From the sequence record NC_004928.1: a stretch of 64,000 nt of DNA; one strand, written 5' to 3'. This stretch comes from Escherichia phage RB69. Under the pieces are notes generated by a model. It did not search any database. It saw nothing but the letters and a program-made list of their open reading frames with translations, and was not told the DNA's origin. A program made the translations under genes and the position numbers. Of this stretch, positions 9,879-45,133 are shown in pieces (positions within the stretch are counted from its first letter, which is position 1; every line of letters starts with the position of its first letter).

Positions 9879-10102
9879 TCTATTTCCTTTGCTGCTTCAA
9901 GAGCAGCATCCAGCGAATCAAATTGGTCGACGAAATCAATATTCAACGCATCGTCAACCGTAGCATATAACCACCATTGTTTGAATTCATATTCTAGGAT
10001 AAATCCAGGCCCTTCAATCTGAGGAAGACCTAGGCTATTTGTACCAACTTCGTAACCAGCTAGACGCAGGTCATTAATCAAAGTTTCTGTTAATACGCTC
10101 AT
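9875..10102 (-). CDS. hypothetical protein
   Basis: 75-aa acidic ORF. Confidence 0.45.
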   Translation of the reverse strand: MSVLTETLINDLRLAGYEVGTNSLGLPQIEGPGFILEYEFKQWWLYATVDDALNIDFVDQFDSLDAALEAAKEIE

Positions 10103-10434
10103 TTTACCGCCTTAACAATTTTCAAGTCAGCGAATTTTTTCTTACGTTGATTTTTCATACTACGGATAGTCTTTTCAGAGATTTCATGTTTCTGATAAGC
10201 TTTAGATTCAACACCAAATGCAGCACCGTCAAATTCAGAAAGAATATATTGTACTCGAATTTCACGAATAGAATTACGTCCAATTTTCTGGTCCGTGTTT
10301 TTGCATGATTTCCATAAAGACGGAAATTCCCACGCGTCAAGAACTTGAGGAGTAACAATATTGCCAGATTCCAGAAGAGCAACAACTTTATCGAAAGCGA
10401 AAGAATTAACTACGCTTTTGATTTTAGTAGACAT
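10099..10434 (-). CDS. hypothetical protein
   Basis: Track ORF 10099..10482 trimmed to internal ATG (MSTKIKSV). Confidence 0.4.
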   Translation of the reverse strand: MSTKIKSVVNSFAFDKVVALLESGNIVTPQVLDAWEFPSLWKSCKNTDQKIGRNSIREIRVQYILSEFDGAAFGVESKAYQKHEISEKTIRSMKNQRKKKFADLKIVKAVK

Positions 10435-12976: not shown

Positions 12977-13447
12977 TTAATCATGTTTCCACACCCCATC
13001 GGTATTTGACCAAAGTCGCTGATTATCTGATCCTCGCCATAGCTTTTTGGTCGGAAGATTTTTCTCATACTTCCCATCAATAATAACATCAACATATTTA
13101 AGCATTTCTAGTTGTTTAATATCTTCAAACTTGTATCCTGTCCACAACCAAATGCTTTTATTGGGATAAAGATTTTTTACTGTTTGAGCAATGCAATGAA
13201 TAACATCTCGATTGTCAGGATAGAGAGGGTCACCTCCGGTTATAGTCAATCCTTCTATATAATCGTTATTCAAACATTCAATTAATTGTTCTAGTGTTTC
13301 ACCAGTGAATGGAACACCATTTCTAGCATTCCATGTTGATTTATTATAACACCCTTCACATTTATGCAAACAACCTGTAACGAAAAGAACGACCCTACAA
13401 CCAGGGCCATTCACAAAATCGCAAGGATAAAATCTATCATAATTCAT
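12977..13447 (-). CDS. nrdG: anaerobic ribonucleotide reductase activating protein NrdG (radical SAM)
   Basis: 156 aa; CLHKCEGCYN cysteine cluster; near-identical to T4 NrdG. Confidence 0.9.
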   Translation of the reverse strand: MNYDRFYPCDFVNGPGCRVVLFVTGCLHKCEGCYNKSTWNARNGVPFTGETLEQLIECLNNDYIEGLTITGGDPLYPDNRDVIHCIAQTVKNLYPNKSIWLWTGYKFEDIKQLEMLKYVDVIIDGKYEKNLPTKKLWRGSDNQRLWSNTDGVWKHD

Positions 13448-15261
13448 TGGTGTTTAACCCTATGCATGATTTCTTTATTTTTACCGAGATTAAATCCGCG
13501 TTCGTTCGGATTTCCCAAATAACCGCATGTTCTTCTTATGGTGTTCATCTTTTTAGGATCAGTTTCTCCACAAATAGAACAAACAAATCCGGTTTCAGTA
13601 GGAGTCATTTCATGGGTACTTCCGCATGTAAAACATTTATCTACTGGCATATTAACACCAAAATAATCTAAATGTTGTGCAGCATAATCCCACACGGCCT
13701 CAAGACCTTTTAAGTTATTTTTCATATCAGGAAGTTCAACATAAGAAATGTGACCACCTGTCGCAATGAAATGATATGGCGCTTCACGAGAAATCTTTTC
13801 AAACGGAGTAATATTTTCTTCTACTGAAACATGGAAACTATTAGTGTACCAGCCTTTATCAGTAACATCCTTTACACTTCCATATTTTTCTGTATCAAGT
13901 TTACAGAAGCGATAACAAAGGTTTTCAGCAGGTGTAGAATACAAGCTAAAAGCAAACCCAGTTCTTTCAGTCCATTGTTTAAGAAGAGCATTCATTTTAG
14001 TTAAAATTTCTTGTCCAATATCACGACCGACAAGAATATTCAATTCGTGAATACCAATGTATCCTAGGGACACTGAACTTCTACCATTTTTAAATAACTC
14101 AATTATGTCATCATCAGGTTTAAGACGAACCCCGAATGCACCTTCTTGGTAAAGAATAGGAGCAACAGTAGCTTTAACTCCTTTTAAGGAACTAATTCTA
14201 CACATCAAAGCTTCAAAACACAGGTCCATTCGCTCATCGAACAATTCAGTAAATTTCTGTTCATTGAACTGTGTTCCAATATAAGAATCTAACGCAATAC
14301 GAGGAAGATTCAGTGTTACAACGCCAAGATTATTGCGTCCATCAAGAATTTCATTGCCAGTTGAATCTTTCCATATGCTCAAGAAACTACGGCAACCCAT
14401 TGGAGAAACAGGAACTGAAGAACCGGTAATAGCTTTATTATTCTTAACCGAAATAATGTCAGGATACATTCTTTTGCTTGCGCACTCTAACGCAAGTTGT
14501 TTAATATCATAGTTCGGATCATCTTTATAAAGATTAACACCTTCTTCAACAAACATAACAAGTTTAGGAAAAATAGGAGTTATTCCATCACGACCAAGAC
14601 CTTTAATGCGGTTTTTAAGAATTGCTTTCTGAATCATTCGTTCAGTCCAGTCAGTTCCCGTACCAAATGTAATTGTTACAAAAGGCGTTTGTCCGTTTGA
14701 ACTAAAGAGAGTATTTACTTCATATTCATAAGCTTGGAATGCATCGTATACGTCTTTTTCTGTTTTAGACTGGGCATAATTCAACGCATCAGCGATTTGC
14801 CATTTTTCTGCATCCTCAATATGTTTTGCATAGGTGCGTTTAACATAAGGAGAAAGTACTTTATCTACATTAGCAAAAGTCGTTCCGCCGTATTGATGGG
14901 AAGCAACCTGTGCAGTAATTTGTGCCATAATTGCAGTAGCAACGCCAATAGATTTAGGCGTTTCAATTTGAGCATTGCCTAATTTAAATCCATTCTCAAG
15001 CATCCCCTTTAAATCGACTAAACAGCAATTGGTAAACGGAAGAGCAGGAGAATAATCAATATCATGCATGTGAATGATTCCGCTTTCATGCGCATGCATA
15101 ATAAAAGACGGGACCATATTTTTGGCAATGTGCTTAGACACAATACCAGCCATAAGGTCCCGTTGAGTTGGAAAAACACGAGAATCTTTATTAGCATTCT
15201 CGTTCAAAAGATCTTTATTAGTTTTATAAATTAATCCTTCAATTTCTTTTTCAATTTTCAT
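13444..15261 (-). CDS. nrdD: anaerobic ribonucleoside-triphosphate reductase NrdD (glycyl radical enzyme)
   Basis: 605 aa; C-terminal glycyl radical motif RTCGYLG; uninterrupted ORF. Confidence 0.9.
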   Translation of the reverse strand: MKIEKEIEGLIYKTNKDLLNENANKDSRVFPTQRDLMAGIVSKHIAKNMVPSFIMHAHESGIIHMHDIDYSPALPFTNCCLVDLKGMLENGFKLGNAQIETPKSIGVATAIMAQITAQVASHQYGGTTFANVDKVLSPYVKRTYAKHIEDAEKWQIADALNYAQSKTEKDVYDAFQAYEYEVNTLFSSNGQTPFVTITFGTGTDWTERMIQKAILKNRIKGLGRDGITPIFPKLVMFVEEGVNLYKDDPNYDIKQLALECASKRMYPDIISVKNNKAITGSSVPVSPMGCRSFLSIWKDSTGNEILDGRNNLGVVTLNLPRIALDSYIGTQFNEQKFTELFDERMDLCFEALMCRISSLKGVKATVAPILYQEGAFGVRLKPDDDIIELFKNGRSSVSLGYIGIHELNILVGRDIGQEILTKMNALLKQWTERTGFAFSLYSTPAENLCYRFCKLDTEKYGSVKDVTDKGWYTNSFHVSVEENITPFEKISREAPYHFIATGGHISYVELPDMKNNLKGLEAVWDYAAQHLDYFGVNMPVDKCFTCGSTHEMTPTETGFVCSICGETDPKKMNTIRRTCGYLGNPNERGFNLGKNKEIMHRVKHQ

Positions 15262-17028: not shown

Positions 17029-17292
17029 TCATTTAAAATATTCTCGCAGTTGGTCAAATCCACCAATGTGACTTCCGTCAGGAGCAAACACTTGAGGCAT
17101 AGTCAATCCGACTTGTGATTCACGTCCAAGCTTAACCAGAAGCTCAGCAATTTTCTCATCATCAAAAACACCTTTTTCTGGCATAACATTAATGAATTCG
17201 AACGGCTGTTTCTTAACAGTCAGCAATCGTTTCGCATTATCACAATAAATGCATTTATGAATAGTAGAGTCATACCCGTACACTTTAAACAT
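17029..17292 (-). CDS. nrdC: thioredoxin/glutaredoxin NrdC
   Basis: MFKVYGYDSTIHKCIYCDNAKRLL near-identical to T4 NrdC; start trimmed. Confidence 0.9.
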   Translation of the reverse strand: MFKVYGYDSTIHKCIYCDNAKRLLTVKKQPFEFINVMPEKGVFDDEKIAELLVKLGRESQVGLTMPQVFAPDGSHIGGFDQLREYFK

Positions 17293-17698
17293 TATTTTTC
17301 CTTTCATCGATTAAATATGCAATGCCAAATACAATACATGTAATAAAACCTGTGATACAGATAGAAACCAACAACACTGTACCAAAGAACCAAATCAAGT
17401 TATCTTTAGTAGTTTGTTTGATATCCATCTCACGAATTTCTATAGCTATCGTATCACCTTTATTCAGAAGCGTATAAAACGATGGTGATACACGCCTGTC
17501 AAAAACTCGTCCTTGCTCATCTTTATAGACTGCAATAAATTCTAATTTAGAATATTTTCCTGTAGATTGGCCTGAGATTAATTCCACTACCTCCACAGGA
17601 ATTACTTTAGTTTCCATGTAAGTATTCTGGCTGTTCCAAATGAATGGAATAATAGCAAAAACTAAAGCTGCGATAAAACAACGAAGGCTATATCTCAT
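17285..17698 (-). CDS. membrane protein
   Basis: 137 aa with N- and C-terminal hydrophobic helices. Confidence 0.5.
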   Translation of the reverse strand: MRYSLRCFIAALVFAIIPFIWNSQNTYMETKVIPVEVVELISGQSTGKYSKLEFIAVYKDEQGRVFDRRVSPSFYTLLNKGDTIAIEIREMDIKQTTKDNLIWFFGTVLLVSICITGFITCIVFGIAYLIDERKNNV

Positions 17699-18003
17699 TA
17701 TAATGTTCTCTCAAATTTGTGGAAGCATTTACGGCATTTCAATTTCAAGTTATCAGTGGTCCAGTTAACCAGTTGGACTTGGATAGTTCCACATTCCGGA
17801 TATGGATGGTTTGATGCCGATTTGGCAGCATTTTCACGTCGTTCAACCATTTTCATTATTTCGTTCCATGCTGGAGGAACGAACTCTTCTTCACCATGAA
17901 TTTTATCTCGCTGAACAAATTCAATCTTTGAACTATCGTCAATAAACTTAACCAAGCCATGATTAGTGCTCATATCAATATCCTCTAAAAGACGTAGTTT
18001 CAT
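17698..18003 (-). CDS. hypothetical protein with C-terminal Cys-rich region
   Basis: 101 aa; C..C..H / CRKC motif suggests a zinc-binding fold. Confidence 0.45.
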   Translation of the reverse strand: MKLRLLEDIDMSTNHGLVKFIDDSSKIEFVQRDKIHGEEEFVPPAWNEIMKMVERRENAAKSASNHPYPECGTIQVQLVNWTTDNLKLKCRKCFHKFERTL

Positions 18004-18947
18004 TATAACACCTCAATGGCATTTCGTAAACCATCCGCTTTCGCATTCAGAGCTTTTAACGATTTAGTTTGTTCTGCAATCTGGGCTTCGACTTCTTTCA
18101 GACGAGATTTGAGATATTCGCGTTCTTCTCTTAAGTTATCAACCTTTTCTGCTTTAGGTTCTTTAATAGGCTTAAACACATTAGGGTTCTTCAGTTTAAT
18201 TTTAATTCGAGAACTGAATAACATTGAACCGTTATCTTCGGTTTCACTGTGCATTTCTACCACGTCCATGATTCTTAACATCATGCGAAGTTTATAAGAC
18301 AGCGAACGAACGGTTTTATTGTGCTTCTTAATTTCTTCAGCTTTCATGGTGCCGAGATTACGTGAGTAATAATAAGGAACCTGAATATCAATTGATAATG
18401 ATGCGGTACCATTACCGGTTGGTTTGAACACTGCAGTAACCCAATCTTTAACATGAACTTTATTTGTACGATCATCGCCGCCAGTGAATAATTTACAAGA
18501 ATGTTTAAAAAGCATATTCACTTGGTTATTGAATTCACAAGCAAATTTATCAGCAAATTTAGTTTCAGGAATGGTAGAGAACCAATCAGCTAAATGAGTC
18601 TTTTTAACATCATTAACAATAGTGAATTCAACCAAATCGGTTTTAGATGTCACAGATTTAATAAAGCTCGGCTTCATAAAGTTTTTGATGTTATCACGAG
18701 CTACAGTAGAAGATAATAAACGAGAACGTTTGAACCATTGAAGCAGTGTCCCTAATGAATGAGAATACGCATTCTGAGTATCTTTACAGATATGATTTTC
18801 TTGGCCCGTGTATGTACCAAAATCGCGAAGAATACCACTTACTACATCTCGGTGTGGAACATCAAATCCTAGTGCACCAACAGCGCGCTGGGCATGAACG
18901 TTAGCGATAAGACCGGCAAAGTATTCAATGTAATGTGAACGTGTCAT
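18003..18947 (-). CDS. hypothetical protein (314 aa) with C-terminal coiled coil
   Basis: Long ORF driven by promoter cassette at 18976..19006. Confidence 0.55.
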   Translation of the reverse strand: MTRSHYIEYFAGLIANVHAQRAVGALGFDVPHRDVVSGILRDFGTYTGQENHICKDTQNAYSHSLGTLLQWFKRSRLLSSTVARDNIKNFMKPSFIKSVTSKTDLVEFTIVNDVKKTHLADWFSTIPETKFADKFACEFNNQVNMLFKHSCKLFTGGDDRTNKVHVKDWVTAVFKPTGNGTASLSIDIQVPYYYSRNLGTMKAEEIKKHNKTVRSLSYKLRMMLRIMDVVEMHSETEDNGSMLFSSRIKIKLKNPNVFKPIKEPKAEKVDNLREEREYLKSRLKEVEAQIAEQTKSLKALNAKADGLRNAIEVL

Positions 18948-18975
18948 AATGTTTTCCTCTCGTTAAGATAGAAAG

Positions 18976-19006
18976 ATTATACTCCAACCATCCTTGGTTG
19001 TAAACT
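18976..19006 (-). promoter_or_regulatory. early promoter cassette (TATAAT; CCAACCA-tcc-TTGGTTG palindrome; GTTTACA -35)
   Basis: minus strand reads GTTTACAACCAAGGATGGTTGGAGTATAAT. Confidence 0.5.
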
Positions 19007-19069
19007 GTTTTTATGATTTTAATGCATTCATTGCGTTAAAAAGTTTAGAATACTGCAACTGGAGATTCG

Positions 19070-19972
19070 TTACAACACTTTGAGCATCACGGAGCTTAGC
19101 TTGTGCCTTGTCCAGTTCAACAGACAGTTGGTCCACGGGGGCTTTGATTTGGTTGTAATGGTAATCTTCGGCCGGAAGAAGGCATTAGAACATTTAGTTT
19201 TACTGCCGACAGTTTGCACACATTTGGCAACCTTTAACATACCAGGTTGTGCCGGAGCTGGAGAATATGCACCTAAGACTTCGGCATTACCAACTGGTGT
19301 TGCAGTAATTGACGCTTCGAACGTTGCATTTTCCTTTTTAAGATTTTGATAGTATTCAGAGTCTTTGTGCCACCATGGCGCAGGAACCTTTTTACCAATA
19401 GATACACGAGCCTGGATAGCAATATGACCCTTATTCTTGATGGGGTCGATAATATTAAGCTCACGAGAATAAATTGCTTTAATCTGGTGGATATTATCAC
19501 CTAACACTTCCAACGCTTGGTGGAATACACGAGCAACGTTATCATTCTTAGGTTTATACGTAAGAGTGAACTCATTCTCACTGATAACCATGATTTCCAA
19601 CTTATCGTAAGTATATTTCAAATGTTTCATGTTAATTGCTTGAGGACGAATACGAGAAGCAATGGCCAACAGATTGTTAAGGTTATTTCTGAACTGTTTA
19701 GCAAAATATTGTCCGTAGCCGCCGATACAAAAATTACGAAGTTTCTGTTTGGCTAATAAACGGCTGAACTCACCATTTTTAATGAACTCTTTAACGGGTG
19801 TGTTAGTAACGCATTCAAATTGAGTAAACTTACGAGAATTAATCCCATAATATGAACAGATTTCCTCAATCTCTTCAGGAGTCTTTACAGGCATACGGAT
19901 AGGATTAGGTCCTGGAGTATATGCGTTCGAGGTAAATTCTTTGATAAGTTCTCTACGTGTAATAGAAGCCAT
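19070..19972 (-). CDS. hypothetical protein (300 aa)
   Basis: Long ORF with its own promoter cassette. Confidence 0.55.
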   Translation of the reverse strand: MASITRRELIKEFTSNAYTPGPNPIRMPVKTPEEIEEICSYYGINSRKFTQFECVTNTPVKEFIKNGEFSRLLAKQKLRNFCIGGYGQYFAKQFRNNLNNLLAIASRIRPQAINMKHLKYTYDKLEIMVISENEFTLTYKPKNDNVARVFHQALEVLGDNIHQIKAIYSRELNIIDPIKNKGHIAIQARVSIGKKVPAPWWHKDSEYYQNLKKENATFEASITATPVGNAEVLGAYSPAPAQPGMLKVAKCVQTVGSKTKCSNAFFRPKITITTKSKPPWTNCLLNWTRHKLSSVMLKVL

Positions 19973-19998
19973 TTTATATTCCTCATGTTGAAAAATTT

Positions 19999-20029
19999 AT
20001 TATACTCCAACCATCCTTGGTTGTACATC
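19999..20029 (-). promoter_or_regulatory. early promoter cassette, near-identical to 18976..19006
   Basis: same CCAACCATCCTTGGTTG palindrome and TATAAT. Confidence 0.5.
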
Positions 20030-21023
20030 ATTCCTTAAGAAGTTTTACTACTTGAATAAGATTAGCTCGTTCTGTTTTATTTTTACCGTTTAAGCCTGCT
20101 AATCGTGAGATTTCATCGTCAGTCTGTTGAATAGTTACATTAAGTTCGTTAATCAAAGCTTCAAAGTATTTGATTTGCTCAGCATGTTTTGATTCAAATT
20201 TCTGAACCGGAATAACGTCTTGGTTTAGTTCGTCAATAAGGTCTTTAAGAGCATCTTCTTGGTTGATATCATATTCAACTTCTTTTATTTCTTCAACGAG
20301 CTCGTCTTTATATCTAACGTCTTTTAGTCCTGGTGCTGGTCCTGAAATCTCTTCTTTAAGAGTACAAACATACCCAATACGGTATCCAATGCCGTCTCGC
20401 TTGATATCAACTTCGTCGATAAATCCACAATGTTTAAGACCAGAGCCGATTAGGTTAAAATATCCTTGACGTCGTCCTTCAAACGTTACACGAACTACTA
20501 AGACGGTTTTGCCACCGACCTTTTGAAGCTCACATTTATAAAAGTCAGTTGAACCTGAATAACGTGGATGAGTTTTAAAGTTCATCTGACGATCTAGGCC
20601 CATTTGTAAACGTGCTGATACGGCCAGAAAACGTGTTTGGTTCTCGTTAAGATGAGCAACAATCTGTTTCAAAGGCATTTTACCCTGTTCACGTCCGAAC
20701 AAATCAGTACGTCCTAGATTACGCAGGATGTTGTTAGAGTTAATCATCGACAGAACGTTAAGTTTATTCAGCGCGCTGAAGATTCCATCAGCCATTGATT
20801 TTCCATAACCTTTACACGCTTTAATAAGTGCTCGCGGCAGATTAGTATAGATTTCAGACGGCATATGAAAATCAAATTTACTAGTCAGTAATTGATGAAC
20901 TTGGATAGCAATTTGCTCATAATTAAGTGCTCTGCGATCGTTATGGTCTTTAAACCACACTTTAATCTGTGAAGCACATAAACCGTTAATTTCATGTTTT
21001 ACCGCATCAGATGTAATGCTCAT
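20028..21023 (-). CDS. hypothetical protein (331 aa) with C-terminal coiled coil
   Basis: Long ORF; promoter-like element upstream at 21059..21085. Confidence 0.55.
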   Translation of the reverse strand: MSITSDAVKHEINGLCASQIKVWFKDHNDRRALNYEQIAIQVHQLLTSKFDFHMPSEIYTNLPRALIKACKGYGKSMADGIFSALNKLNVLSMINSNNILRNLGRTDLFGREQGKMPLKQIVAHLNENQTRFLAVSARLQMGLDRQMNFKTHPRYSGSTDFYKCELQKVGGKTVLVVRVTFEGRRQGYFNLIGSGLKHCGFIDEVDIKRDGIGYRIGYVCTLKEEISGPAPGLKDVRYKDELVEEIKEVEYDINQEDALKDLIDELNQDVIPVQKFESKHAEQIKYFEALINELNVTIQQTDDEISRLAGLNGKNKTERANLIQVVKLLKE

Positions 21024-21085
21024 AACTATTTCCTCAGATTGAATTGGAACTCAAAACCATTATAACCCGTCCTTGGGTAAAGCGT

Positions 21086-21613
21086 TTATGCGTGAACCGT
21101 CTTTAAACGTTCTTCAAATTTCCGAAGAGTACTAATACGTTCTGCTTTCTGTTTTGTATAGTTTGCAATACGTTCTGAAGTGAGAGCGTATCGTTCGTTT
21201 ACTGTTTCTTTCATGAAGTCAGGGATTTCACGAGAATCTCCAATTTCATCAAACTTATCGAGTACTGCCTGGTCTTCAGCAATTAAATTTTCGTACATCT
21301 CGATATCTTTCTTAATAAACTCGATATCTTCCTGGGTTACTTTGGATAAACGAGATGCTTTATCCTTTTTGTGCTGTTCGTTAGTTTCACGAGACCAGAA
21401 TAATGTACGTTTTTTGTTAGTGTTTTTGTAGACTTCCACAATTCCAACTGAATCGATGATAACAATCCAATTCCAGCGAGATTTGAAAATCTGACCTCCG
21501 TCCACGGTAATCTCGTTACCATAAGCAACGTCATTAAAGAACTTGCTTTGTGCTTCAGATTTAAATTTACCGTCGTTATAATTTACCAGGTTGAAAATAT
21601 CTTTAGCGTTCAT
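21086..21613 (-). CDS. hypothetical protein
   Basis: 175-aa ORF preceded by promoter cassette at 21632..21670. Confidence 0.5.
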   Translation of the reverse strand: MNAKDIFNLVNYNDGKFKSEAQSKFFNDVAYGNEITVDGGQIFKSRWNWIVIIDSVGIVEVYKNTNKKRTLFWSRETNEQHKKDKASRLSKVTQEDIEFIKKDIEMYENLIAEDQAVLDKFDEIGDSREIPDFMKETVNERYALTSERIANYTKQKAERISTLRKFEERLKTVHA

Positions 21614-21631: not shown

Positions 21632-21670
21632 GATAGGTCTATAATAACATAACCATAGACCTTGTAAACA
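21632..21670 (-). promoter_or_regulatory. early promoter cassette (TAGGTCTA..TAGACCT palindrome, GTTTACA)
   Basis: minus strand GTTTACAAGGTCTATGGTTATGTTATTATAGACCTATCAA. Confidence 0.5.
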
Positions 21671-22948: not shown

Positions 22949-23006
22949 ATTTACTCATTTCGTTTCGATAGGTCTATAATAACATGTTTAAAGCAAAAGT
23001 AAACAA

Positions 23007-23244: not shown

Positions 23245-23282
23245 GATAGGTCTATAATAACATATCCTAAAAGCATGTACAC
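23245..23282 (-). promoter_or_regulatory. early promoter cassette (GATAGGTCTATAATAACAT)
   Basis: shares the GATAGGTCTATAAT core with 22967..23005 and 21632..21670. Confidence 0.45.
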
Positions 23283-25341: not shown

Positions 25342-25636
25342 TTAAAGTTTCAACAAAATTCACCAAATCATTCAGACAAGCATCAACCTGATTTTCATAA
25401 AAGTCTTCGTTATCATTTACTGCATGATAAGCTACATCATTCAAATCTGATTCGGCCTCACGTAAGTGAGGGATAAGTTCCATCAATTTATTAGCTTGTT
25501 CACGGGTCATTTTACCATACTCGCTTCAATAAGATTAATTACACCATTTACCATGTTATACGTAAACATCGGATAATTGTATTGTACTATAACATAAGCG
25601 ATAAGCAAAAGTTTCATTTTGTTCTCCATTTGTTTT

Positions 25637-25676
25637 GATAGGACTACTATAACATAGTCCTACCAAGATGTAAACT
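25637..25676 (-). promoter_or_regulatory. early promoter cassette, canonical copy (GTTTACA-n6-TAGGACTA-tgttatag-TAGTCCTA)
   Basis: 8-bp perfect inverted repeat flanking the -10 region; GTTTACA -35. Confidence 0.5.
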
Positions 25677-31448: not shown

Positions 31449-31778
31449 TTATACTCTAGGCTTTTGAGCTTGTTTGGTATTGGATTCCCATGCGGCTTTG
31501 GTAATTTTGTTAGCGGCATAACCAAAGGCATTAGATAGAACACCTTTAGAGTTGAATACATCCAATCCAATAAGTACACCGGCTGTGTTAAATTTAGGAG
31601 CAAAGTACGCATTAGTTTTAGAAAGAGCTTTTTTCAATTCAGGGTCTTGAACCAAGCCATCAAAAACGCCTTTACTATTTACTTTGTATGTTACTTTGGG
31701 ATTTTTACCTTCTTCGATAGCAGCTTTCTGTTCCGCAGATAATGTAACTGCAGCGATAAACTCCTGATATGTTTTCAT
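31449..31778 (-). CDS. internal-protein-like protein with capsid targeting sequence
   Basis: N-terminus MKTYQEFIAA matches the T4 internal protein leader (MKTYQEFIAE). Confidence 0.6.
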   Translation of the reverse strand: MKTYQEFIAAVTLSAEQKAAIEEGKNPKVTYKVNSKGVFDGLVQDPELKKALSKTNAYFAPKFNTAGVLIGLDVFNSKGVLSNAFGYAANKITKAAWESNTKQAQKPRV

Positions 31779-31846
31779 TTTGTTCCTATTGTTTTAATTT
31801 ATGTTATTCTTTAGGGAAGTTTTTAGAGTATGCATCATAAAGTTTA

Positions 31847-32119
31847 TTACCAATACGACGGAAGACTTTCAGCTGCAAAACGGTTTTCAGGGTTTTTAAT
31901 CATGATTTGCATCATGTAAGTTCCTGCATCCGAAAGAGCTTCTTCATAGTACCCATTAATTTCTTTAAGAGTCCTACGTTTACCGCCAGGACCGTCAACA
32001 GTAATTCTCCATTTACCTGTAGAAGTGCGGCTCGGTGGCTCAACTTGTTCAATCCAAATATAACCACCTTCAACGCGTTGGTTGGCGGATTCTGCAATAA
32101 ATTCTTTATACGTTTTCAT
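31847..32119 (-). CDS. internal-protein-like protein with capsid targeting sequence
   Basis: N-terminus MKTYKEFIAE. Confidence 0.6.
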   Translation of the reverse strand: MKTYKEFIAESANQRVEGGYIWIEQVEPPSRTSTGKWRITVDGPGGKRRTLKEINGYYEEALSDAGTYMMQIMIKNPENRFAAESLPSYW

Positions 32120-32138
32120 TTTTGTTTCCTTGTTTGTT

Positions 32139-32182: not shown

Positions 32183-32443
32183 TTAAGCTTGACCGCCAGA
32201 AATAATTCCGAAGTTGTTAAAATCGTATCCAATATCGTCAACATCTACTTTAGGACTTACTACAACATAAGCAATTTCACTACGTTTTGCATAGGTGTTG
32301 ATTTCTTTACCATCGCCACCTAAGAAAGAATACCCATTACGTTTTAATGAGCCAAAATCTTCCGCATCACCAATGAAAGCTTTAACTTTAAATTTAGGGT
32401 CTTTGGCATCTGCTTCAATGATAAATTCTTGATACATTTTCAT
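32183..32443 (-). CDS. internal-protein-like protein with capsid targeting sequence
   Basis: N-terminus MKMYQEFIIE. Confidence 0.55.
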   Translation of the reverse strand: MKMYQEFIIEADAKDPKFKVKAFIGDAEDFGSLKRNGYSFLGGDGKEINTYAKRSEIAYVVVSPKVDVDDIGYDFNNFGIISGGQA

Positions 32444-32449
32444 TTTTCC

Positions 32450-35888: not shown

Positions 35889-35907
35889 AATATTCTCCTC
35901 ATGTTTA

Positions 35908-35946
35908 ATAGGACTACTATAATATAGTCCTATAATTGTGTAAACA
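35908..35946 (-). promoter_or_regulatory. early promoter cassette, canonical copy (TAGGACTA/TAGTCCTA)
   Basis: GTTTACA -35, -10 within 8-bp inverted repeat. Confidence 0.5.
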
Positions 35947-37194: not shown

Positions 37195-37200
37195 TTAATT

Positions 37201-37240
37201 TGATAGGACTACTATAACATAGCCCTATCTTGTTGTAAAC
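37201..37240 (-). promoter_or_regulatory. early promoter cassette (canonical family)
   Basis: GTTTACA..TAGGGCTATGTTATAGTAGTCCTATCA. Confidence 0.5.
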
Positions 37241-37244
37241 TGTT

Positions 37245-40282: not shown

Positions 40283-40300
40283 TTTGTATTCCTCGTGTTT

Positions 40301-40340
40301 TGATAGGACTACTATAACATAAACTTACTTAGATGTAAAT
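40301..40340 (-). promoter_or_regulatory. early promoter cassette (canonical family)
   Basis: TGATAGGACTACTATAACAT core. Confidence 0.45.
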
Positions 40341-40511
40341 TATTTCAACGTCACCTTTAGCTGCTTTATAACCTTCAGCCCAAGATACAACAGAGTTTTT
40401 ATCTGAGGATTCAAATTCAGGCATTGGACTTTCACCAATATTCACACAGTATGTTTCTTCATTTTCATCGAACCAAATAATTAAAGTAGTCATTTTGTTT
40501 ACTCCTCTGTA

Positions 40512-40553
40512 GTTGATAAGTCTATAGTATCACCATCCTTGGTGCTTGTACAT
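40512..40553 (-). promoter_or_regulatory. early promoter cassette (hybrid of the GATAAGTCTATAG and CCATCCTTGGT variants)
   Basis: ATGTACA -35, TATAGT -10-like. Confidence 0.4.
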
Positions 40554-44398: not shown

Positions 44399-44405
44399 TT
44401 TGTTT

Positions 44406-44445
44406 TGATAGGACTACTATAACATAGTCTTATCAGCATGTAAAC
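44406..44445 (-). promoter_or_regulatory. early promoter cassette (canonical family)
   Basis: GTTTACATGCTGATAAGACTATGTTATAGTAGTCCTATCA. Confidence 0.5.
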
Positions 44446-44448
44446 TAC

Positions 44449-44736
44449 TTACAGAAGAGTTTTTGCAATAATTTTAAGCTGAGCTACAGAAATATGCTTA
44501 GCTTTAAACAGTGCAGTCTCTTCAGCCGGAGAGATAACAATAGTAGCGCCATCTTTCTTAGCAGACCATCCATCCCCTAAGTAAACAGTACCTTTTACTT
44601 CTTCGCCGTCAACCAGACTAATCATTGGTTTACCCTCACGTCCTTTATTTGCTTTAATAACTTCGGAAGTAAGGGTTGCTTCGGTCAGAGTAGAAACGTT
44701 AGCAACAGGTGATATAAATTCTTTATAGGTTTTCAT
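44449..44736 (-). CDS. internal-protein-like protein with capsid targeting sequence
   Basis: MKTYKEFISP leader; start trimmed. Confidence 0.55.
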   Translation of the reverse strand: MKTYKEFISPVANVSTLTEATLTSEVIKANKGREGKPMISLVDGEEVKGTVYLGDGWSAKKDGATIVISPAEETALFKAKHISVAQLKIIAKTLL

Positions 44737-44758
44737 TTTAGGTTCCATTTTGTTGTTT

Positions 44759-44798
44759 TGATAGGACTACTATAACATAGTCCTATCGTGTTGTAAAA
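44759..44798 (-). promoter_or_regulatory. early promoter cassette (canonical family)
   Basis: TAGGACTA-tgttatag-TAGTCCTA with -35 TTTTACA. Confidence 0.5.
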
Positions 44799-45109
44799 TA
44801 TTTTATGCCTTTAGATGAAATAGTATTCTGGCGTTTGACCCCTGTTTGTGAAAAATCATGGTTATCAATTTGGTCAACTCGCATAACACCAAATGCAGAT
44901 TTAATTTTAGCCTTTGAACCTTTTTTGATACTAATTACCATATAAGTATCATTTTTCTTATATTCGAAATTTGTTACTTCAACGCCTTGATTAGAAATTG
45001 ACTTAATAATAGCATTAGCGTATTCATCATCTAACGGACCGTTAGTGTTAATAACAAAATTTTTATCTGCTTTAGTAGCTTCCGCGATGAATTCTTGATA
45101 GGTTTTCAT
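44783..45109 (-). CDS. internal-protein-like protein with capsid targeting sequence (ipI position)
   Basis: MKTYQEFIAEA leader; located directly before 57B as ipI is in T4. Confidence 0.55.
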   Translation of the reverse strand: MKTYQEFIAEATKADKNFVINTNGPLDDEYANAIIKSISNQGVEVTNFEYKKNDTYMVISIKKGSKAKIKSAFGVMRVDQIDNHDFSQTGVKRQNTISSKGIKYFTTR

Positions 45110-45133
45110 TTTATTTCCTTGAGGTTGTTTATT

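Follow-up and report, generated by a model that had tools for sequence, protein, structure and literature searches.

A 64,000-nucleotide stretch of the genome of Escherichia phage RB69 (record NC_004928.1, genome positions about 32001–96000; hereafter the window) contains three consecutive large open reading frames (ORFs), which an earlier note on this DNA had suggested to be independently acquired early effectors, each with a promoter of its own. All three ORFs lie on the minus strand where that note had placed them (Table 1), and their size is unusual only in relative terms, the nearby nrdC.10 (316 amino acids (aa)) and nrdC.11 (329 aa) being equally large. Judged by sequence comparison, they correspond to the T4 early accessory genes nrdC.3, nrdC.5 and nrdC.6, of which they are the orthologues in RB69; we refer to them as genes 1, 2 and 3, respectively.

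Identity and conservation of the three genes

T4 nrdC.3 matches gene 1 over its full length with 56% identity (BLASTP, E 3e-119), and gene 1 matches PHROG 1435 across positions 1–314 (E 6e-103). Gene 2 falls in the Pfam family DUF7235 (PF23882; E 2.4e-86, with a score of 290.4 bits where the cut-off is 30), and its sequence shows 100% identity to NP_861787 of RB69, 'NrdC.5 conserved hypothetical protein'. T4 nrdC.5 is itself a full-length member of DUF7235 (profile positions 1–307, E 5e-126), and its direct BLASTP match to gene 2 is weak (E 1e-6, about 25% identity). T4 nrdC.6 and gene 3 share 30% identity over 270 aa (BLASTP, E 1e-19), and gene 3 matches PHROG 2257 (E 1.8e-126). Homology to T4 nrdC.x proteins, which the earlier note had named as a finding that would refute its reading, is therefore present in each case. 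The genes are already annotated as nrdC.3, nrdC.5 and nrdC.6 in the RB69 record; explicit equivalences to RB69 nrdC.3, nrdC.5 and nrdC.6 are also given in the record of a related phage, with notes such as 'similar to RB69 nrdC.3' (Shf125875 record) and 'similar to RB69 nrdC.6'. In this respect the observation is mostly ordinary. Given that the genes are annotated and that two of the promoters were predicted in 2006 (see below), the finding as first stated adds little; the additions are modest and consist of a frame error in RB69 nrdC.5, a shared coiled-coil plan with partial paralogy, and a covarying hairpin embedded in the promoters.

Table 1. Features of the nrdC.3–nrdC.6 locus; positions are those of the window.
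Feature	Position	Strand	Description
nrdC.3 (gene 1)	18003..18947	minus	314 aa
nrdC.5 (gene 2), annotated ORF	19070..19972	minus	300 aa
nrdC.5, full coding span	19011..19972	minus	962 nt, not a multiple of 3
Four single-nucleotide deletions in nrdC.5	19183..19238	minus	at about 19238, 19231, 19191 and 19183
True nrdC.5 C-terminal coiled coil (…DQLSVELDKAQAKLRDAQSVVTNLQLQYSKLFNAMNALKS)	19011..19136	minus	41-aa ORF, frame differs from that of the annotated ORF
nrdC.6 (gene 3)	20028..21023	minus	331 aa
Early (sigma-70 type) promoter of nrdC.3	18976..19004	minus	TTTACA-N17-TATAAT, 11/12 consensus matches
Early promoter of nrdC.5	19999..20027	minus	TGTACA-N17-TATAAT, same spacer hairpin
Putative nrdC.6 promoter	21059..21084	minus	CGCTTTA (21084–21078), 13-nt spacer, TATAAT (21064–21059)

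The three ORFs are true genes under purifying selection and not chance ORFs. The 4.1-kb stretch that holds them is present in 635 phage records of the collection searched, which does not contain RB69 itself (top identity 96.5%); gene 3 has tblastn matches in 740 records, and the three ORFs are kept across 580–740. The ratio of nonsynonymous to synonymous substitution rates (dN/dS) against relatives is 0.14–0.23 across the three genes, with values of 0.20–0.23 for nrdC.3 and 0.14 for nrdC.6. Their order next to nrdC.2 and nrdC.8 is the same in four T-even genera (Tequatrovirus, Mosigvirus, Gaprivervirus and Dhakavirus), and by BLASTP the genes flanking the trio are homologues of nrdC.2, nrdC.8, nrdC.10 and nrdC.11. 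The gene nrdC.3 lies immediately upstream of nrdC.2 in transcription order and overlaps the start of the nrdC.2 homologue (17698–18003) by one base (ATGA), as in T4; at the other end, the upstream neighbour of nrdC.6 is a homologue of nrdC.8 (21086–21613) that is 82% identical to its T4 counterpart. The trio belongs to the hyperplastic region that stretches from nrdC to mobD, and all three genes are presumed to be non-essential.

In T4, nrdC.3, nrdC.4 and nrdC.6 are functionally uncharacterised ORFs (PHROGs 1435 and 2257; precomputed tables give Pfam PF26897 and PF26899). Gene 1 is orthologous to T4 nrdC.3 and related to nrdC.4, gene 3 corresponds to nrdC.6, and the neighbours nrdC.2 and nrdC.8 are shared; RB69 differs from T4 in lacking nrdC.4 and in having its nrdC.7-like gene elsewhere. 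Phages RZ and QL01 lack nrdC.3. For nrdC.6, an exhaustive search of representatives among 1.84 billion proteins returned only six representative clusters, all T-even, and a scan of viral contigs for more diverse relatives gave two near-identical loci.

The earlier note saw no catalytic motifs in these proteins, and our searches bear this out. Pfam, NCBIfam and PDB-sequence searches returned nothing significant except DUF7235; the NCBIfam matches were sub-threshold and of coiled-coil type, and searching PDB sequences with the three family profiles gave nothing at E ≤ 1 but two chance matches, again of coiled-coil type. At the level of fold there is no PDB match either: the best Foldseek match of the nrdC.6 model has an E value of 0.046, and recurrent matches to H-NOX and to de novo designs are not significant. 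These results also bear on whether the genes could be homing endonucleases or other mobile-element genes, which are common in this region of T4 (mobC, mobD, I-TevII). The presence of mob genes in the T4 region is what speaks for that idea; Pfam, NCBIfam and PHROGs yield no HNH, GIY-YIG or LAGLIDADG domain, the fold search gives no match, and the position of the genes is fixed and syntenic across genera, so we give this explanation practically no weight.

Many GenBank records label nrdC.3, nrdC.5, nrdC.6 and their neighbours (18003–21613) as 'thioredoxin'. This label is wrong: Pfam gives no match to thioredoxin or glutaredoxin, and none of the three sequences contains a CxxC motif. It has apparently been carried over from the 'nrdC.x' gene names.

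The C-terminal frame of nrdC.5

The annotated gene 2 ORF covers only positions 1–232 of the 307 in the DUF7235 profile, and the remainder is encoded out of frame. The intact relative NBG1_091, which is 95% identical to gene 2 over the first 237 residues, covers the profile from 1 to 307. Global alignments to NBG1, LH01, SA79RD and Shf125875 show the same four single-nucleotide gaps in RB69 each time; three of the four fall in T3 runs, and together they shift the frame by −1. The annotated ORF is right for about residues 1–244 only, and its last ~60 residues are an out-of-frame artefact.

The tail that belongs to nrdC.5 is found in another frame, as a stop-free ORF identical to the C-termini of the relatives. 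In this ORF, 100% of the heptad a/d positions are hydrophobic, compared to 42% in the annotated tail, and in its own frame it has a dN/dS of 0.06–0.10. When the four bases are restored, the result is a 321-aa nrdC.5 that is identical to the intact relative P0036 at 310 of 321 positions. Intact relatives, 309–319 aa long with a conserved C-terminal coiled coil, fall into clusters with 234, 43, 45 and more members, whereas the cluster of the 300-aa form has one sequence, which stems from a single GenBank record; the form occurs in no independent assembly. The earlier note's statement that two of the proteins end in coiled coils holds as far as it goes, but understates the case: the third coil, that of the ORF at 19070–19972, had been hidden by the four deletions.

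How did this arrangement arise? Because four single-nucleotide deletions occur within 56 nt, mostly in T runs and in conserved surroundings, and because the coil frame has been under selection, we consider sequencing error in the 2003 assembly a fairly likely source, and a likelier one than a true pseudogene. If the RB69 laboratory strain instead truly had nrdC.5 as a pseudogene, or made its protein with a rewired C-terminus, the function of nrdC.5 would have been lost in RB69. The four deletions do stand in the deposited sequence, and the exact repaired protein is missing from a collection of 15 billion proteins, an absence that does not separate an artefact from a pseudogene. Moreover, nrdC.6 in the T4 reference has its frame disrupted in a similar manner directly ahead of the coiled coil, so it is conceivable that such coils are lost when phages are passaged in the laboratory on defence-poor hosts. 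Against this stand the clustering of four separate deletions in otherwise well-conserved sequence, three of them in T runs, a pattern that looks like base-calling error in a Sanger assembly of 2003; the stop-free, constrained coil frame downstream; and the confinement of the 300-aa form to one record. We regard the pseudogene as the unlikely alternative. Programmed frameshifting was also considered and rejected because it would need to accommodate four separate indels.

In detail, the disruption in the T4 reference nrdC.6 (275 aa) lies at the 3' end of the gene (NC_000866, about 9997–10110). Its relatives end in …IEELNISIQQYDDEIFRLSGLSSKAKSEREKLIKIVDLLKS, a tail that T4 encodes intact in another frame, which extends to within 10 nt of the start codon of nrdC.5. 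Both RB69 nrdC.5 and T4 nrdC.6 are therefore mis-framed before their coils in the reference sequences, and cloning either gene from its annotation would yield a truncated or scrambled protein.

Promoters and a covarying spacer hairpin

The earlier note assigned each gene a private palindrome promoter. This is correct for nrdC.3 and nrdC.5, which are preceded by an identical 27-nt cassette (TACAACCAAGGATGGTTGGAGTATAAT) at 18976–19002 and 19999–20025; a tested 25-mer of this cassette occurs twice in the 64 kb, with zero copies expected. Within the spacer of the nrdC.3 promoter lies the inverted repeat CAACCA-AGGA-TGGTTG (19000–18985), followed by GGAG. The −35 element of the nrdC.5 promoter overlaps the nrdC.6 stop codon. 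These two promoters are not new. Nolan et al. (2006) predicted RB69 early promoters (Pe) at Pe:51019, 52042, 53683, 55018 and 55296, and their spacings of 1023, 1641, 1335 and 278 nt are exactly those of the sites at 19004, 20027, 21668, 23003 and 23281 in the window. The nrdC.3 promoter is thus Pe:51019 and the nrdC.5 promoter Pe:52042; the NBG1 and SA79RD records also annotate a promoter at the position of the former.

The element in front of nrdC.6 is related but different, and here the earlier claim does not hold as stated. It begins right after the nrdC.8 stop codon, its palindrome is degenerate (ACCC-AAGGAC-GGGT, in the spacer), and it is not a sigma-70 −35/−10 pair. Using as a criterion for a MotA box the sequence (a/t)(a/t)(a/t)TGCTTtA located 11–13 bp upstream of TAnnnT, the nrdC.6 element (aaaCGCTTTA) has six of the seven core bases and lies 13 nt from TATAAT. 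From its sequence, it resembles a middle promoter whose MotA box departs from the consensus at one position; it appears in neither the early nor the middle (Pm) promoter list published for RB69. The same arrangement, CGCTTTA-TACCAAGGATGG-TATAAT, also precedes nrdC.7 in T4 and IsaacDaniel and nrdC.6 in RZ and QL01. In RB69 the nrdC.7-like gene lies elsewhere, at 17285–17698, and a nrdC.7-type promoter therefore directly precedes nrdC.6. A terminator scan found none between nrdC.8 and the nrdC.6 promoter; read-through from Pe:53683 therefore probably serves nrdC.6 as well.

Comparison across phages shows that the spacer palindrome is a recurrent element of these promoters. The pattern xxxCCA-AGGA-TGGxxx occurs in the spacer of every promoter-bearing member of the group (T4, IsaacDaniel, RZ, QL01 and RB69), with the inner pairs and the AGGA loop constant and the outer pairs covarying from phage to phage. 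Overall, 89.6% of cells are paired, with double changes in four of the six pairs; the covariation score is 0.60, compared to 0.15 in shuffles (0/500 reach the observed value) and 0.05–0.13 in slid controls. The covarying arms point to structure rather than to a palindrome bound by a protein. As RNA the hairpin is weak (folding free energy −6.9 kcal/mol, z about −1), and it would exist on read-through transcripts only. A role as an intrinsic terminator was rejected because the hairpin lacks a U tract and was not called in the terminator scan. The spacer motif is usually followed by GGAG and TATAAT, which in RNA reads GGAGUAUAAU; this sequence resembles the RegB/S1 consensus GGAGRAYARAA (PMC1702504), a likeness that we offer as a lead only.

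The closest known parallel is provided by the promoter-early stem-loops (PeSL) of T4-type phages, which are cassettes of an early promoter and a stem-loop (Arbiol 2010, PMC2839356; Comeau 2014, PMC4122927). As in PeSL, a strong early promoter with an inverted repeat recurs in RB69 between accessory genes of the hyperplastic region, and the cassettes are associated with the presence or absence of gene modules, each gene being an autonomous unit. However, the PeSL stem-loop lies upstream of the −35 element and is a terminator, whereas the RB69 hairpin lies inside the −35/−10 spacer, is weak and without a U tract, and has a constant AGGA loop usually followed by GGAG. Recombination between cassettes, which in PeSL involves mini-circles and the gain and loss of modules, may also occur here, but the observations that bear on it are circumstantial: variable gene content (nrdC.4 missing from RB69, nrdC.3 from RZ and QL01) and the identity of the cassettes that flank RB69 nrdC.5.

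Further repeats occur elsewhere in the window. A fourth copy of the spacer hairpin (CACCA-AGGA-TGGTG) is found at 40524–40552, a long way from the nrdC genes, in the early promoter of an unrelated gene. In many other early promoters of RB69 there is a conserved inverted repeat of another kind, which brackets the −10 hexamer (AGGTCTAT…ATAGACCT or ATAGGACTA…TAGTCCTAT) and is followed by TATCAA(CTAC). Sites of this kind (repeat families D1–D4 and D8) lie at 21641–21668, 22976–23003, 23254–23281, 25630–25676, 35900–35946, 37195–37241, 40295–40341, 44400–44446 and 44753–44799.

Shared architecture and possible common ancestry

All three proteins end in heptad-patterned helices, with 83% (nrdC.3), 100% (nrdC.5) and 67% (nrdC.6) of the a/d positions hydrophobic, and the C-terminal coiled coils share an L..A(L/I)..LK-like ending. 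AlphaFold2 (AF2) models of nrdC.3 and nrdC.6 have nearly the same order of secondary-structure elements. In nrdC.3, an N-terminal five-helix domain precedes a central alpha/beta region, and the coiled coil at the C-terminus spans ~273–313; in nrdC.6, a helical N-terminal half is followed by a beta-hairpin and helix, an acidic low-confidence linker (209–277), and a C-terminal helical hairpin or coiled coil (281–330). The mean predicted local distance difference test (pLDDT) value of the nrdC.3 model is 55.6, with 82–91 for residues 1–86 and about 70–83 for helix 273–313; this model is poor in the middle and was used for secondary structure and one BFVD search only. The nrdC.6 model has a mean pLDDT of 67 and a predicted TM-score of 0.55. 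In the common plan, which includes no enzyme domain, a helical domain at the N-terminus is followed by a central alpha/beta part, then by a variable linker, and finally by the coiled coil.

Do these similarities reflect common descent, or are the genes unrelated, each having been captured on its own together with its promoter, as morons are? Several observations would fit separate capture. BLASTP finds no match among the three RB69 proteins, which fall in three different Pfam and PHROG families. The RB69-type nrdC.5 is only ~25% identical to that of T4, compared to 56–82% for its neighbours, and its promoter cassette is missing from T4 nrdC.5, a pattern that replacement of this single module could explain. 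To compare the families by their profiles, we used HHalign with alignments enlarged by sequences from T4, IsaacDaniel, RZ (Gaprivervirus) and QL01 (Dhakavirus). This links nrdC.3 to nrdC.4 (HHalign probability 97–97.5%, E 4.5e-11 to 7e-12), nrdC.4 to nrdC.5 (72–79%, E about 2e-5, with 1.6e-5 at 79%, over 154 columns and unchanged with the coil removed), and the combined nrdC.3 and nrdC.4 families to nrdC.5 (87.5%, E 3.6e-6); the RB69-type and T4-type nrdC.5 are linked at 94.5% (E 7.5e-8). The link from the combined nrdC.3, nrdC.4 and nrdC.5 families to nrdC.6 is lower (43%, E 2.6e-4) and colinear, and controls with reversed profiles gave E values of 0.08–0.6. Two motifs that connect nrdC.6 to the other families are visible by eye, FK.SRLLS....L.NF against LNK.G.LSRINA..ILRNY and FR.N...ILK.ASR against NQRRLLALGARL. 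An hmmsearch match of the nrdC.5 profile to gene 1 (E 1e-5) was not counted; the single-sequence HHalign alignment indicates that it probably reflects the coil only.

Structural comparison points in a similar direction. The nrdC.3 and nrdC.6 models both match the BFVD entry E5EYP0 (E values of 4e-5 and 1.5e-3), and Foldseek matches the nrdC.6 model to uncharacterised proteins of 300–335 aa from T4-like phages of Acinetobacter, Klebsiella, Pectobacterium and Enterobacter (E 1e-6 to 7e-5).

Other results weigh against a single family. The link between nrdC.4 and nrdC.5 is carried by the T4-type subfamily only. That of nrdC.6 to the others is weak, and when a single sequence is aligned to a profile HHalign does no better than with unrelated ORFs of the window. 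The AF2 models have low confidence in their central parts, and Foldseek TM-scores across families are low (0.2–0.5). Nonetheless, separate capture is difficult to reconcile with the same order and position in four genera, the profile–profile links, the common length, order of secondary-structure elements and coil motif, and the CCA-AGGA-TGG cassette that precedes family members in all phages compared; we consider it quite improbable. The independent acquisition proposed by the earlier note is accordingly not upheld, as order, cassette and architecture are shared and the genes are at least partly paralogous. Instead, we favour reading nrdC.3, nrdC.4 and nrdC.5, and perhaps also nrdC.6, as a gene family that is diversifying locally and not as independent imports. 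Taken separately, common ancestry of nrdC.3 and nrdC.5 is probable, and for nrdC.6 we propose it tentatively, at slightly less than even chances.

One of the structural matches of the nrdC.6 model is p122 of Acinetobacter phage Acj9 (36836–37813; 325 aa; BFVD E5EPQ6; Foldseek E 7e-6). Its gene lies between gene 49 and nrdC.10, and the protein ends in a coiled coil; no sequence-level similarity to the nrdC.3–nrdC.6 families was found.

A possible role in counter-defence

The function of one relative of these genes has been studied. A T4 mutant lacking nrdC.5 fails to plate on E. coli carrying dsr1 but plates again when a plasmid supplies nrdC.5 (Srikant, Guegler and Laub 2022 eLife, PMC9391042). 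Dsr1, a SIR2 NADase, has a TPR sensor that is reported to recognise the phage major capsid protein (PMC12803255); it is plausible that this sensor offers a surface to block. RB69 gene 2 resembles T4 NrdC.5 in Pfam family, length class and locus and, once its frame is restored, in its C-terminal coiled coil. It differs in having its own early promoter, whereas T4 nrdC.5 directly follows nrdC.6, in its low identity, and in its frame-disrupted deposited sequence, and the anti-Dsr1 activity has been shown for the T4 gene only. On the basis of homology, we infer that the RB69 NrdC.5 allele would neutralise Dsr1 as well. The earlier suggestion of early effectors such as anti-defence proteins thus gains support by homology for nrdC.5, and for nrdC.3 and nrdC.6 it is a reasonable inference.

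Several properties of the proteins lead us to expect that they would act stoichiometrically by binding host proteins: they possess a coiled coil but lack a catalytic domain, their sequences diverge quickly, and they occur only in T-even phages, among which their presence varies. We propose that its own promoter would let each unit be expressed from the onset of infection independently of the adjacent genes, that the coiled coil would oligomerise the protein, and that the variable N-terminal and central parts would attach to a host immune protein and block it. In the nrdC.5 family this target would be Dsr1, presumably bound directly. A functional analogue exists in DSAD1 of an SPbeta-group phage, which inhibits the sirtuin defence protein DSR2 by direct binding (PMC10973363, PMC11087589) and is likewise a non-enzymatic phage protein that neutralises a SIR2-NADase abortive-infection protein. 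No relation in sequence or fold was detected between the two, they come from different phage groups, and DSAD1 targets DSR2 instead of Dsr1. Direct binding, demonstrated for DSAD1, is our prediction in the case of NrdC.5.

There are arguments against assigning the trio to counter-defence. T4 nrdC.5 does not find RB69 nrdC.5 by tblastn at E 1e-3, and at ~25% identity the anti-Dsr1 activity may therefore not carry over. The deposited RB69 nrdC.5 is without its coiled coil. In the literature searched, we found no anti-defence data for nrdC.3 or nrdC.6 and no published mechanism for NrdC.5 against Dsr1. The proteins might instead be early modulators of host takeover or housekeeping, acting on transcription, the nucleoid, the membrane or nucleotide metabolism, with T4 nrdC.5 as the sole case of immune evasion. 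Early-type promoters are found in front of many T4 host-shutoff genes, the neighbours include nucleotide-metabolism genes such as nrdD and nrdC, and the lack of anti-defence reports for nrdC.3 and nrdC.6 would also fit. However, genes that are T-even-restricted, fast-evolving and variably present show the pattern of an arms race and not that of conserved takeover functions, and the sole relative tested is a counter-defence gene. We therefore consider host takeover unlikely, and a diversifying accessory family whose likeliest job is counter-defence by binding somewhat better than an even bet for the trio as a whole. That nrdC.3 and nrdC.6 are themselves counter-defence proteins is a plausible extrapolation and not a result, and for either gene individually it is doubtful.

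A more far-reaching proposal combines these elements: nrdC.3–nrdC.6 would form one fast-diversifying counter-defence family with a functional, covarying promoter hairpin. We think this combination improbable as a whole. Each paralogue would be tuned to a different host immune sensor, and distant T4-like phages such as Acj9 would carry structurally similar counterparts, unrecognisable by sequence, at the same locus. The CCA-AGGA-TGG hairpin could insulate the modules on read-through RNA or promote their exchange by recombination. If nrdC.3, nrdC.4 and nrdC.6 are indeed paralogues of the anti-Dsr1 gene nrdC.5, they are candidates for new counter-defence genes and hence for revealing the defence systems they target.

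Neighbouring genes

Several features of the surrounding region differ between RB69 and T4. The RB69 nrdD (13444–15261) is a single uninterrupted ORF of 605 aa, whereas T4 nrdD is split by a group I intron carrying I-TevII, and there is no mobC-like gene in the RB69 stretch examined. The nrdC.7-like gene encodes a predicted membrane protein of 137 aa that is 41% identical to T4 nrdC.7; it lies between nrdC and nrdC.2 in RB69 and between nrdC.8 and nrdC.6 in T4. Farther away, near-identical gene starts (MKTYQEFI…; repeat family D5) are found in small minus-strand genes at 31744–31784, 32085–32125, 32409–32449, 44702–44742 and 45075–45115, which suggests a family of at least five small paralogous early genes.

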